DNA from: Escherichia coli
GTDB lineage: Bacteria; Pseudomonadota; Gammaproteobacteria; Enterobacterales; Enterobacteriaceae
Assembly: GCF_051903065.1 (NCBI RefSeq)
Contig: NZ_CP178438.1
Strand: one strand, 5' to 3'
DNA: 64,000 nt
Position numbers and translations under genes: made by a program. The notes under the pieces were generated by a model. That model ran no database searches. It saw only the letters and a list, made by a program, of their open reading frames with translations, and had not been told where the DNA came from. Below are positions 43,037-47,112 of this stretch, piece by piece (positions within the stretch are counted from its first letter, which is position 1; every line of letters starts with the position of its first letter).

Positions 43037-43729
43037 TTAATTGTGTCGCTTAAGGGTTTGTGACTGACTGATTAAGACCTTTCCAAAGACCATAAACCGG
43101 TGTTCGTTTTCGCTGGTAATTCCCCATTCGCGGTAAATCTGATTATCAGAAATTACCAGCAGTTTATCAGGTATCATTTGCAGTCGTTTGACGTAAATTT
43201 TATCATCAAAACCAAATACATATATACCATCCCCATCAAACTGATTGATACTGATATCAACGAAGATGAGATCTCCTGGCTCAATGGTTGGACACATACT
43301 GTCCCCACGAACGTTGATAACTTTAATGTGATTTGCTGGTCGTCCACCAAACATCGATACAGCATTATCAGTTCTGTATTCAATGGCATGAATCACATCA
43401 ATGACATCACCGCCCTGGATAAGGCCATTTCCCGCACTGGCACTGACATCCAGCATTTCAATACGGAATACATCCTTCACCTGCGCAACATCCTCACTAA
43501 TACTGTTTTTACATACAGTATTACTTTTGAGGTCTGAGGTAAAGAGATCAGCAATATCAACACCTAAGCTCCTGGCAATATTACTCAGGGCTTGTTCAGT
43601 GAATTGTTTCTGCTTACCTGTTTCGAGGCGCGAGATATTCGCCGCATCCACTCCTATTGCTTCAGCGAGATCGGCGATTTTCATGTTCTTCGCCTGGCGA
43701 AGTTGTCTGACTCGATTTCCTATGTTCAT
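43037..43729 (-). CDS. CI-like phage repressor (HTH-XRE plus S24 peptidase domain)
   Basis: 230-aa ORF MNIGNRVRQLRQAKNMKIADLAEAIGVDAANISRLETGK...; C-terminal RGDSMCPTI and KRL (Ser/Lys dyad). Confidence 0.85.
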   Translation of the reverse strand: MNIGNRVRQLRQAKNMKIADLAEAIGVDAANISRLETGKQKQFTEQALSNIARSLGVDIADLFTSDLKSNTVCKNSISEDVAQVKDVFRIEMLDVSASAGNGLIQGGDVIDVIHAIEYRTDNAVSMFGGRPANHIKVINVRGDSMCPTIEPGDLIFVDISINQFDGDGIYVFGFDDKIYVKRLQMIPDKLLVISDNQIYREWGITSENEHRFMVFGKVLISQSQTLKRHN

Positions 43730-43826: not shown

Positions 43827-44087
43827 ATGCAATCACCATTACGGAATGTGCGTAAGGCGCACGGATTTACTTTGCAGCATGTTGCTGCGGGCGTTCAGGT
43901 CAATCCAGCGACGCTGAGTCGTATTGAAAGACTGGAACAAATTCCATCTATCGATCTTGCAGAACGTCTGGCCAATTTTTTTAAGGGTGAAATCAGCGAA
44001 ATGCAGATTCTTTATCCGGCACGTTTTCAATCTAGCCAAAACCAGAATGGGTTTAAACCACAGGAACAGGAGGTAAGCCGTGGGTAA
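43827..44087 (+). CDS. Cro-like HTH regulator
   Basis: 86-aa ORF with GGAGG RBS; HTH FTLQHVAAGVQVNPATLSRIERLEQIPSIDLAERLANFF. Confidence 0.75.
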   Translation: MQSPLRNVRKAHGFTLQHVAAGVQVNPATLSRIERLEQIPSIDLAERLANFFKGEISEMQILYPARFQSSQNQNGFKPQEQEVSRG

Positions 44088-44631
44088 GCATCATTGGAAA
44101 GTGGAAAAACAACCTGAGTGGTACGTGAAAGCTGTCAGAAAAACTATCGCGGCATTGCCAGGGGGTTACGCTGAAGCTGCTGACTGGCTGGATGTAACAG
44201 AGAACGCTTTATTCAACCGCCTTCGTGCAGATGGCGATCAGATTTTCCCGTTGGGATGGGCAATGGTTTTACAGCGTGCTGCTGGCAATCACCACATTGC
44301 GGATGCTGTCGCACAGTCTGCTGGTGGGGTGTTTGTATCACTTCCTGAAATTGAGGAAGTAGAGAACGCCGATATCAACCAGCGCCTGCTGGAGGTCATT
44401 GAACAGATCGGCAGTTATTCCAGACAGATTCGTTCAGCAATTGAAGACGGGGTGGTGGAACCACACGAGCAGGCAGCAATTAACGACGAGCTGTACATGT
44501 CAATTTCGAAGCTGCAGGAGCATGCAGCACTGGTCTACAAAATCTTTTGCGCTCCAGAAAAGAGTGACGCCCGCGAGTGTGCAGCTCCGGGCGCCGTGGC
44601 GTTTTGTGTCTGTGGAGAAACTAACGCATGA
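44080..44631 (+). CDS. CII-position regulatory protein (possibly YdaT-like)
   Basis: 183-aa ORF, GTG start with AGGAGG RBS, overlapping cro stop; family uncertain. Confidence 0.4.
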
Positions 44632-44966
44632 ACAGTTTAACAACACACTACCGTCGCTCGCAACTGATTGCGCTTCCTGTACCGGGTGGAAAAGCGAAGG
44701 TGGAGTATTGCTATGCAGTGAATGTACCAGGTGACAGGGAAATTGTAACCCACAGCTTTGCAGAGTGGGCTGTGGGTGATTTCAACCGGCAGAAGGAGAC
44801 AGTCCTTTGCGACAAGTTAACCGCTGGTTCAAAGATCACTACGGAGTGCCCGTCAGAGTCATTCGTTGGGAGCCGGAAACACAACGGGTTATCTACCTCC
44901 GTGAAGGCTATGAACATGAATGCTTCAGTCCGCTCGAACAGTTTCGTCGTAAATTCAGGGAAATAG
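44628..44966 (+). CDS. Hypothetical protein (112 aa), overlapped by an alternative-frame small ORF
   Basis: ORF from track; ATGA coupling to preceding gene; no family recognised. Confidence 0.3.
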
Positions 44967-45019
44967 AGGTCGGTCATGAGCCTGTTAATGACATCCCAGC
45001 CCATTGTGATAAATCGTGA
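44807..45019 (+). CDS. Hypothetical small protein (70 aa), TTG start
   Basis: TTG at 44807 preceded by GAAGGAG; overlaps the previous ORF in another frame. Confidence 0.3.
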
Positions 45020-45968
45020 TCTTGCATGCCGTATTGGTCTGAATGAGGCAATTGTGTTGCAGCAGCTTCATTACTGGCTGAATGAAACGAATTCAGGCAC
45101 TGAGCATGGCGGAATTCGCTGGGTTTATAACACGACAGAACAGTGGCTGGAGCAGTTTCCGTTCTGGTCAGAGTCCACTCTGAAACGCACATTTGCAAGC
45201 CTGAAATCACTTGGGGTTTTGCGTCGCGAGCAACTCAATAAATCGAAGCGTGACATGACCAACTTCTACACGATCAACTATGAAAGTGAGCTTTTAGAAG
45301 AGGTCAAAGTGAACGAATCGATCAGGTCAAAATGCACTTCTCCATCGGGTCAAAGTGACCTGATGGATGGGCGCAAAATGACACGATCCATTGGTTCAAA
45401 ACGACACGCTGTCATCGGGTCAAAATGGCCCAATGATCTTACAGAGAATACAACAGAGATTACTACAGAGAATAAAACCTCTTCTCGTCCGGACGCTTCG
45501 CAACCGGACACGCAAACGGCTGAACAGGAGTTTTTAACTCGCCATCCTGATGCGGTTGTATTCAGCCCTAAAAAGCGCCAGTGGGGAACGCAGGATGATT
45601 TGACCTGCGCACAGTGGCTCTGGAAAAAAATCATCGCCCTGTACGAGCAGGCCGCCGAATGTGACGGCGAGGTGGTTCGTCCCAAAGAACCGAACTGGAC
45701 AGCCTGGGCAAACGAAATTCGCCTGATGTGTGTGCAGGATGGTCGTACTCACAAACAAATCTGCGAGATGTACAGCCGCGTCAGCCGCGATCCGTTCTGG
45801 TGCCGTAACGTGCTCAGCCCGTCGAAGTTGCGGGAAAAATGGGATGAGCTTTCCCTGCGCTTATCGCCGTCCGTCAGCACGCACACAGAAAAACGTGAAG
45901 ACCCGTACTTCAAAGCCAGTTACGACAACGTGGACTACAGCCAGATCCCGGCAGGATTCAGGGGGTGA
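44976..45968 (+). CDS. Phage replication initiation protein (O-like N-terminus)
   Basis: 330-aa ORF in the replication position after cro/cII; assignment by position and composition. Confidence 0.5.
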   Translation: MSLLMTSQPIVINRDLACRIGLNEAIVLQQLHYWLNETNSGTEHGGIRWVYNTTEQWLEQFPFWSESTLKRTFASLKSLGVLRREQLNKSKRDMTNFYTINYESELLEEVKVNESIRSKCTSPSGQSDLMDGRKMTRSIGSKRHAVIGSKWPNDLTENTTEITTENKTSSRPDASQPDTQTAEQEFLTRHPDAVVFSPKKRQWGTQDDLTCAQWLWKKIIALYEQAAECDGEVVRPKEPNWTAWANEIRLMCVQDGRTHKQICEMYSRVSRDPFWCRNVLSPSKLREKWDELSLRLSPSVSTHTEKREDPYFKASYDNVDYSQIPAGFRG

Positions 45969-46459
45969 TCATGAGTCTTTTGAATGAAGTTCAGAAATTC
46001 ATTGAAGCCCATCCGGGGTGTACTTCCGGAGACATTGCGGATGCTTTTGCAGGTTACTCACGGCAGCGCGTTCTGCAGTCAGCAAGCAAGTTACGTCAGA
46101 GTGGGCGTGTGGCTCACCGTTGTGAAGGAGATACACGCAGACATTTCCCACGCCTGACTGAGAGAGCGCAGGAGCCGGAACCACAACCAGTTCGTGAAAC
46201 CAGACCTGTGCGCAATTTCTATGTCGGCACTAACGATCCCCGGGTGATTTTGTGCCTGACCCGCCAGGCGGAAGAACTGGAGTCCAGGGGCCTATACCGT
46301 CGTGCTGCAACGGTGTGGATGGCGGCATTCCGTGAAAGCCACTCCCAGCCAGAACGAAACAATTTTCTGGTGCGTCGTGAGCAGTGTTTACGGAAAAGCA
46401 GCAAGCGCGCTGTATCGGGTGATGAGTGGTATCTGTCAGGGAATTACGTGGGGGCTTAA
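45965..46459 (+). CDS. PerC-like transcriptional activator homolog
   Basis: 164-aa ORF; segment LESRGLYRRAATVWMAAF resembles the PerC/Pch core from memory. Confidence 0.35.
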   Translation: MIMSLLNEVQKFIEAHPGCTSGDIADAFAGYSRQRVLQSASKLRQSGRVAHRCEGDTRRHFPRLTERAQEPEPQPVRETRPVRNFYVGTNDPRVILCLTRQAEELESRGLYRRAATVWMAAFRESHSQPERNNFLVRREQCLRKSSKRAVSGDEWYLSGNYVGA

Positions 46460-47112
46460 TGAGTAATAAATATTGCCAGGAGCTGGTGGAACTGCGGAAC
46501 AAACCAGCCCATGAACTGAAGGAAGTGGGTGATCAGTGGCGCACGCCGGACAACATTTTCTGGGGAATTAACACCCTGTTTGGCCCGTTTGTTCTGGATC
46601 TGTTCACTGACGGTGATAACGCCAAATGTGCCGCGTATTACACGGCGGAAGACAACGCGCTGGCGCATGACTGGTCAGAACGCCTTGCGGAGCTTAAAGG
46701 TGCTGCCTTTGGTAATCCTCCATACAGCCGCGCCAGTCAGCATGAGGGGCAATACATCACCGGCATGCGTTACATCATGAAACATGCCAGTGCCATGCGT
46801 GATAAGGGCGGGCGCTATGTTTTCCTGATCAAAGCTGCCACCAGCGAAGTGTGGTGGCCGGAAGATGCAGATCATATTGCTTTTATTCGCGGGCGTATTG
46901 GTTTTGAACTGCCTGTCTGGTTTATCCCGAAAGACGAGAAGCAGGTACCGACAGGAGCTTTTTTCGCTGGTGCTATTGCTGTTTTTGACAAGACCTGGAA
47001 GGGACCGGCAATCAGCTACATCGGGCGCGATGAACTTGAGGCATGTGGTGAGGCGTTTCTGGCGCAGGTTCGCCAGCAGGCGGAAAAACTGGTCAGGGAG
47101 ATGGCGGCATGA
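46459..47112 (+). CDS. Phage DNA N6-adenine methyltransferase (Dam-like)
   Basis: ORF 46426..47112; start at MSNKYCQ (GGGGG RBS); catalytic NPPY motif (FGNPPYSRA). Confidence 0.7.
   Translation: MSNKYCQELVELRNKPAHELKEVGDQWRTPDNIFWGINTLFGPFVLDLFTDGDNAKCAAYYTAEDNALAHDWSERLAELKGAAFGNPPYSRASQHEGQYITGMRYIMKHASAMRDKGGRYVFLIKAATSEVWWPEDADHIAFIRGRIGFELPVWFIPKDEKQVPTGAFFAGAIAVFDKTWKGPAISYIGRDELEACGEAFLAQVRQQAEKLVREMAA

Follow-up and report, generated by a model that had tools for sequence, protein, structure and literature searches.

The closest described counterpart of the locus considered here is ymfM (b1148) of the e14 prophage of Escherichia coli K-12, which has been identified as SfiC, an inhibitor of cell division that is SOS-inducible (Ansari et al., bioRxiv 10.1101/2020.11.19.390815). 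Expression of the K-12 YmfM ORF, cloned whole in pBAD24, blocked Z-ring formation and caused filamentation, and a ymfM deletion was used in the same study (bioRxiv 10.1101/2020.11.19.390815); the fragments recovered in earlier screens span ymfL'-ymfM-ymfN'. Published ymfM work treats the gene as single-frame. As a small, SOS- or induction-linked prophage product that blocks Z-ring formation, YmfM resembles lambda Kil, Rac KilR and Qin DicB; their genes, however, belong to PL-type or other operons, whereas ymfM is located between cII and O in the rightward operon, and no similarity in sequence or fold was found between the ymfM module and these three proteins.

A second described protein that bears on the locus is RgdR (ECs1581), encoded by prophage CP-933C of EHEC O157:H7, which activates LEE1/type III secretion and represses motility, binds DNA non-specifically, and carries an RGD motif at residues 20-22 that matters for T3SS activation (Flockhart et al. 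2011, PMC3378721). RgdR belongs to the DUF4222 family, and in the locus described below a DUF4222 gene and the distal part of a ymfM gene occupy the same DNA in two different frames. The reading favored here, held at a probability of about 0.72, is that both ORFs are genuine genes of the early rightward operon, in a selected and conserved out-of-frame overlap in which the ymfM tail would deliver ribosomes to the replication gene.

The window analyzed is a stretch of 64,000 nucleotides of E. coli DNA, and the segment that hosts the two ORFs is the immunity/replication region of an E. coli e14/SfII-type lambdoid prophage. Its gene order begins with a cI-like repressor gene on the minus strand (43037-43729) and continues with a cro-like HTH gene (43827-44087) and, on the plus strand, ymfL (44080-44631), the regulator in the CII position (Pfam Phage_CP76 (CII), E=5e-16; NCBIfam phage_reg_YmfL, 169 bits). 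The TGA of ymfL (44629-44631) overlaps the start of the following gene in an ATGA junction that is kept across lineages; this gene, ORF-A, extends on the plus strand from 44628 to 44966 (ATG start, 112 aa). ORF-B (44807-45019, plus strand, 70 aa) begins inside it with a TTG, in the frame A+2 (equivalent to A-1), and is preceded by a Shine-Dalgarno sequence, GAAGGAG (44792-44798), which lies within the ORF-A coding sequence 8 nt before the TTG. The two ORFs share exactly 160 nt (44807-44966, plus strand), comprising codons 61-112 plus the stop of ORF-A and codons 1-53 of ORF-B, and the end of ORF-B overlaps the first 44 nt (44976-45019) of an O-like replication initiation gene (44976-45968, plus strand; PHROG 'replication initiation O-like', phrog_391, E=1e-101), 3' of which lies a PerC-domain gene, a 164-aa ORF. 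The first-pass annotation, made from the sequence alone, had reported a 112-aa and a 70-aa ORF overlapping by about 160 nt, the latter with a TTG start and a GAAGGAG ribosome-binding site, placed between the CII-position gene and the replication gene; the ORF list and the sequence bear out the first part of this description, and the Pfam/NCBIfam match of ymfL and the PHROG match of the O-like gene bear out the second. It had offered three explanations, namely that only one of the ORFs is real, that a gene has been frameshifted, or that the overlap is deliberate.

ORF-A is a ymfM orthologue, of the e14 SfiC division-inhibitor family. It is identical to K-12 YmfM (b1148) at 108/112 residues, is of equal length, and lies in the same synteny (ymfL-ymfM-replication gene); phrog_1170 matches it over its full length (E=1e-69), and no Pfam or NCBIfam model matched ORF-A, PHROG 1170 being its only hit. 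In the AlphaFold2 model of YmfM an N-terminal module is predicted with moderate confidence over residues 10-66 (pLDDT 73-84 for residues 10-60), and residues 68-112 have a pLDDT below 40; the tail, formed by the last 52 codons, is probably disordered by this prediction. The first ~59 codons, which make up the single-frame part of the gene (44628-44806, plus strand), are by comparative evidence a conserved functional module. The window differs from K-12 by five bases in all. Four of them fall in the overlap, where each changes the A protein and leaves that of B unaltered; the fifth, in the single-coding part, is silent in A.

ORF-B (RefSeq WP_001250270.1) matches Pfam PF13973 (DUF4222) with 66.5 bits against a gathering threshold of 27 (E=1.5e-18), residues 2-53 aligning to profile positions 3-52 of 53. 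The near-invariant residues of the family (R6, D10, G13, V16, V18, V28, I29, R32, Y35, C39, P42, F46 and F50) are all present in ORF-B, which served as the reference row of the alignment. With five strands and a short helix predicted by AlphaFold2 at a pLDDT of ~90 over residues 1-55, the protein is modeled as a small SH3/Tudor-like beta-barrel of the DUF4222 (RgdR) family, the folded domain being followed by a variable tail (residues 56-70). Its likeness to the Tudor domains of UvrD/CarD is weak, and an association with RNA polymerase is on this ground no more than a lead. The family is small, with 85 representative clusters among 1.84 billion proteins, stand-alone genes included, and its members are mostly 58-78 aa long. 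In every lineage examined a GGAG-like motif stands 8-12 nt before the B start, whether ATG or TTG. The gene ends 47-53 nt past the ymfM stop, inside the replication gene, or, where it is followed by another replication module, codes for 59 aa; K-12 e14 has the same embedded DUF4222 ORF with a TTG start and 59 aa, and the length of 70 aa in the window is attributed to the different, intact replication module downstream.

RgdR (P0278) and ORF-B are both small and prophage-encoded, and both are matched by Pfam DUF4222 (84 and 66.5 bits, respectively), with an hhalign probability of 97.5%. In further comparing the two, RgdR has 99 aa and is found in a P4-like element, with no ymfM upstream and with a +1 frame full of stops. 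The RGD motif of RgdR-type regulators is absent from ORF-B, which has VNR in its place, and in the hhalign alignment RgdR D22 stands opposite ORF-B R6. By analogy, the activity described for RgdR is the only experimental lead to what ORF-B may do.

In the window lineage, the GAAGGA of the B Shine-Dalgarno and a UCCUUU at the TTG are predicted to pair inside a larger stem (44776-44839) with an MFE of -34.2 kcal/mol and a marginal z of -1.98. Through a hairpin of this kind, translation of B could come to rely on that of ymfM; the hairpin is absent as a conserved feature from the other lineages, which use ATG, and with its marginal z it was dropped as evidence.

For the analysis of selection, ~200 related loci were gathered from viral contigs and assemblies; the DUF4222 alignment is very diverse, without a stretch conserved enough for a locus search, and single distant queries were used instead. 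By Nei-Gojobori counts, frame B in the overlap gives a pN/pS of 0.04-0.16 at a pS of 0.6-0.83, and frame A an apparent pN/pS of 1-8. In the first 55 codons of ymfM, outside the overlap, pN/pS is 0-0.25 between closer lineages and 0.4-0.58 to the distant/window lineage. Frame B is by these counts under strong purifying selection and DUF4222 a real gene, and the ymfM N-terminal module is, on the same kind of evidence, real coding sequence under purifying selection. As the synonymous divergence of B is at least that of the single-coding ymfM N-terminus (pS of 0.44-0.61), the amino-acid sequence of the ymfM tail appears to be unconstrained.

These values weigh heavily against the view that ymfM, with its 112 aa, is the one real gene and the DUF4222 frame is spurious, which is in effect the annotation of K-12 MG1655 and of the phage records, where the 339-nt ORF is listed alone (K-12, SfII, mEp460_4F5 and Kati). 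A spurious frame would have to be reconciled with the low pN/pS of B, with a 66.5-bit Pfam match, with a family of 85 clusters that includes stand-alone genes, with a confident AlphaFold2 fold, and with RgdR as an experimentally characterized relative; as far as sequence evidence allows, this view is refuted, and it can be given almost no credence.

A single gene broken up by a frameshift, or a programmed -1 frameshift that would fuse the ymfM N-terminus to DUF4222, has in its favor that B lies in the -1 frame relative to A and that a few N-module/DUF4222 fusion proteins are present in databases (P0031, P0052, P0059 and P0065). The junction differs in each of these fusions, however, which points to independent indels at different positions or to assembly errors, and frame B contains a TGA (44777-44779) 28 nt before the B start, with no X XXY YYZ slippery heptamer between this TGA and the TTG. 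Every lineage examined provides B with a Shine-Dalgarno and start of its own, proteins of 58-78 aa are the norm for DUF4222, and in other lineages the two units stand side by side as separate genes, or the module is present and DUF4222 is not. One continuous conserved ORF in relatives, which the first-pass annotation had named as the refuting result, is not what they contain: two frames are kept in 65/65 distinct close relatives and in most of the distant ones. The single frameshifted gene was thus rejected on account of the two frames kept by relatives and the differing fusion junctions, and the programmed frameshift on account of the missing heptamer, the separate start signals of B and the sporadic, heterogeneous nature of the fusions; together they are considered highly improbable.

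The tail of ymfM is set apart by an open frame that is retained over long divergence. The 65 distinct close relatives all have an A frame that starts at an upstream ATG and ends at the same stop, 157 nt into B, even where the ymfM N-terminal module is another sequence type. Across the DUF4222 core, the A frame is open in 125/137 distinct sequences and the third frame in 0/137. Synonymous resampling of the B coding sequence, using the codon usage of the loci themselves, gave an A frame without stops in 3.5-17% of the trials for each lineage, and with 125/137 observed, two coexisting open frames exceed chance.

The same can be seen at the level of single codons, where a site is termed dangerous if a B codon for Val, Leu or Ile stands before A (or G), as a purine ending then gives TAA, TAG or TGA in the A frame. 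Purines were found at 0/455 dangerous sites, at 0/41 when 13 representatives with less than 80% nucleotide identity were taken (Fisher p=1e-6), and at 0/38 in about nine effectively independent lineages; where the site is safe, codons of these types have a purine ending in 38-43% of cases. With 55-94% of 4-fold sites differing between them, the major lineages are regarded as saturated at synonymous sites. In the long flanking ORFs of the same loci, taken as a control, purines occur at 45% of dangerous versus 51% of safe sites. The negative control was provided by RgdR-type DUF4222 genes (L204-L213, 99 aa), which lie in another context without ymfM upstream; in this clade the figures are 40% for dangerous and 39% for safe sites, and the A-equivalent frame contains 1-3 stops. 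Stop avoidance as an intrinsic property of DUF4222, or as a local codon-pair property, is ruled out by these two controls. By parsimony within closer lineages, ~7 third-position changes were counted at dangerous sites, all of them pyrimidine-to-pyrimidine, and 6/15 changes at safe sites were between pyrimidine and purine; counted as events of this kind the signal is modest, and its strength comes from the deep, saturated comparisons.

It could still be held that nothing matters here beyond DUF4222 and a short upstream ORF, and that the latter extends through DUF4222 fortuitously and without selection, as the RefSeq/PGAP annotation in effect implies. PGAP annotates DUF4222 only in sampled records of ~2000 E. 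coli genomes, the tail is unconstrained and disordered, and frameshifted 63-aa variants are present in databases, all of which would suit an extension of no consequence. These variants are rare, however (3-5 members against >1295 for the 112-aa form), and a fortuitous extension does not account for 0/38 stop-creating codons in the ~nine saturated lineages, compared with 40-45% in the controls, nor for a joint chance probability below 1e-7; such an extension is accordingly judged quite improbable. What is selected in the ymfM tail, as read from these comparisons, is its openness and the position of its stop, and not its sequence. With selection signatures in both frames, the earlier suggestion that only one ORF is real can be set aside, and among the explanations first offered the deliberate overlap is favored by the low pN/pS of B, the avoidance of stops in A, and the keeping of the overlap in 125/137 distinct sequences. 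The comparison of codon positions that the first-pass annotation had proposed as a check was carried out, and gave purifying selection in frame B and an A frame kept free of stops.

Overprinted and embedded genes are known from phages, as in lambda Rz/Rz1, the overlapping genes of phiX174 and the MS2 lysis gene. The present locus is like these in placing two proteins on one DNA stretch in different frames, and in that the older frame dominates constraint and the newer is compositionally biased and poorly conserved. Unlike these cases, the overprinted part is here only the C-terminal tail of an ordinary gene.

The overprinting of the ymfM tail on DUF4222 probably serves to deliver ribosomes to the replication gene. 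In the mechanism proposed, a ribosome would enter at the ymfL/ymfM ATGA junction, stay on the message through the tail and terminate 9 nt upstream of the replication gene ATG; the chain cro-ymfL-ymfM-O would thereby stay translationally coupled, and/or Rho-dependent polarity would be prevented. DUF4222 would be produced from this mRNA through separate internal initiation, with ORF-B translated from its own Shine-Dalgarno and start and dominating the amino-acid constraint in the shared 160 nt. A translational rather than a protein-level role of the tail is indicated, as only openness and stop position are conserved and the sequence is unconstrained. From sequence comparison we infer both the in vivo translation of the two frames and the coupling or anti-polarity role of the tail; a literature search found no ribosome profiling or proteomics of either frame.

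The geometry for termination-reinitiation is present at both ends of ymfM. At its start lies the ATGA junction with ymfL, and at its end the stop TAG (44964-44966) is overlapped by GAGG (44966-44969), the Shine-Dalgarno of the replication gene, whose ATG (44976) is 9 nt past the stop and in the same frame as ymfM. The stop lies, and the GAGG begins, within AAATTCAGGGAAATAGAG (44951-44968, plus strand), which covers B codons 49-54 including rare AGG and ATA, and in which no nucleotide varies among 48 distinct sequences; the three lineages that these represent are elsewhere saturated at synonymous sites. The ymfM stop is formed by a rare NTA codon at B codon 53: in three lineages ATA-G gives TAG, and in another lineage TTA-A gives a TAA stop at the same position. 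In diverged lineages, too, ymfL and ymfM meet in an ATGA, and the stop of A lies 9 nt upstream of the O start codon and shares the O frame. Similarity to SfII ends at ~44981, adjoining AAATTCAGGGAAATAGAG, and this segment may therefore also serve as a module-exchange junction.

RNA structure that would hide the start of the replication gene and force coupling was looked for at its initiation region and was not found, this region being less structured than shuffled sequence (z=+2.2). Being unstructured and provided with a GAGG of its own, the O initiation region has no obvious need of coupling, and with the start not sequestered in predicted RNA structure a dependence on upstream translation would go through reinitiation or anti-polarity. 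Ribosomes translating B would also cover the start region of the replication gene.

Three natural arrangements of these units are seen. In the first (L216), the ymfM module stands alone, with 78 aa and no DUF4222, and ends directly at the replication gene. In the second (L087 and L168-L185), the module stops at the DUF4222 start and DUF4222 in turn ends in an ATGA with the replication gene; in the third, that of the window, the ymfM module reads through DUF4222. Judged from the ORFs, an unbroken relay of reading frames reaches the start of the replication gene in all three. The loci of the second arrangement, a distant group, have the ymfM-module homologue in the third frame (e.g. L168:1486-1680), with its stop 7-9 nt past the DUF4222 ATG; the module TGA overlaps an A-frame ATG (ATGA), and the A frame is open for ~55 codons in DUF4222, with a hydrophobic start. 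That the module stops at the DUF4222 start and the A frame is still open is unexplained by the coupling idea. The openness has a chance of ~0.05 per lineage and is not significant alone, and in the sister group L186-L201 an A-frame stop is forced by a Met-Ile pair in B; the open frame in L087/L168-L185 may have arisen by chance, may be a relic, or may encode a peptide that is made separately.

These loci also bear on the alternative that the ymfM tail is functional in itself, in division inhibition or as a degron or linker for which composition and not exact sequence counts, with the frame kept open for the sake of the protein. Stop avoidance shows that read-through is selected and does not thereby give the reason for it, the opening of the frame with an ATG in the ATGA junction of L087/L168-L185 hints at a separately made peptide, and the K-12 clone that caused filamentation carried the full 112 codons. 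A functional tail would, on the other hand, be one without amino-acid conservation (apparent pN/pS of 1-8 at saturated B synonymous sites) and predicted to be disordered, the ymfM module occurs naturally without any tail, and the second arrangement offers, as mentioned, an openness within reach of chance beside a sister group with a forced stop. A protein-level function of the tail is on balance unlikely, and the overprinted tail that delivers ribosomes to the replication gene is preferred.

The segment is present at >=95% identity in 2015/5426 complete E. coli genomes (~37%), and the module is also found in K-12 itself and in the viable phages SfII, mEp460 and Kati. RefSeq/PGAP annotates DUF4222 alone in every record examined among those 2015 genomes, the 339-nt ORF is the only one of the two listed in the curated record of K-12 and in those of the phages SfII, mEp460_4F5 and Kati, and among the annotations examined there was no record listing both. 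Each of the two genes is known individually, as is overprinting in phages; no mention of the ymfM/DUF4222 overlap was found in the literature.

The overlap affects a K-12 gene with an assigned function on one side and, on the other, a member of the family of RgdR, a pleiotropic virulence/motility regulator. The pBAD-ymfM clone carries the DUF4222 Shine-Dalgarno, the TTG and 53/59 codons, amounting to the whole Pfam domain, and the ymfM deletion removes both ymfM and DUF4222; the published constructs and deletion thus affect both frames, and no frame-specific mutant is described in published ymfM work. As the clones carry and the deletion removes DUF4222 too, the assignment of filamentation to YmfM is confounded. 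It is plausible that SfiC is the 112-aa frame, since the A frame is placed behind the strong start of the vector and B has a weak TTG. That SfiC filamentation is caused wholly or partly by the embedded DUF4222 protein is a minor, rather doubtful possibility; if true, the locus would be a two-protein module of a division inhibitor and an RgdR-like regulator, and the reading of one mRNA in two frames would fix the ratio in which they are expressed. With the overlap recognized, which product does what can be tested directly by changing single bases in ways that are silent in one of the frames. The locus is further a clean natural example of an overprinted tail with selected openness and stop position and an unselected sequence, and should be useful for gene-finder benchmarking and for studies of translational coupling.

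Several further features of the region were observed. Downstream of the replication gene, the window has the PerC-domain 164-aa ORF plus a 228-aa ORF (45965-47112); in strain E47 (L001:4466-4780), which is 100% identical over 44000-45400, the counterpart is annotated as a truncated pseudogene with a LexA-family gene directly after it, a difference that represents a mosaic or a deletion between otherwise identical prophages. In a Salmonella prophage remnant (L218:1501-1731), a 76-aa variant of the ymfM module is followed directly by a DUF968/HNH gene and a Q-like antiterminator; the DUF4222 and replication genes are both deleted, and the remnant resembles in this the deletion state of K-12 e14. 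A 111-aa ORF at 44399-44734 (plus strand) is an alternative frame of the ymfL 3' end that runs into ymfM, and some database gene calls (P0090 and P0165) begin in its frame ('VEKLTHEQF...'); it is probably spurious. On the minus strand, a 97-aa antisense ORF (44711-45004) lies exactly in register with the DUF4222 frame, and the equivalent frame is open in 125/135 related cores; as it suffices for this that frame B lack three rare codons (TTA, CTA and TCA), the antisense ORF is most likely a by-product.
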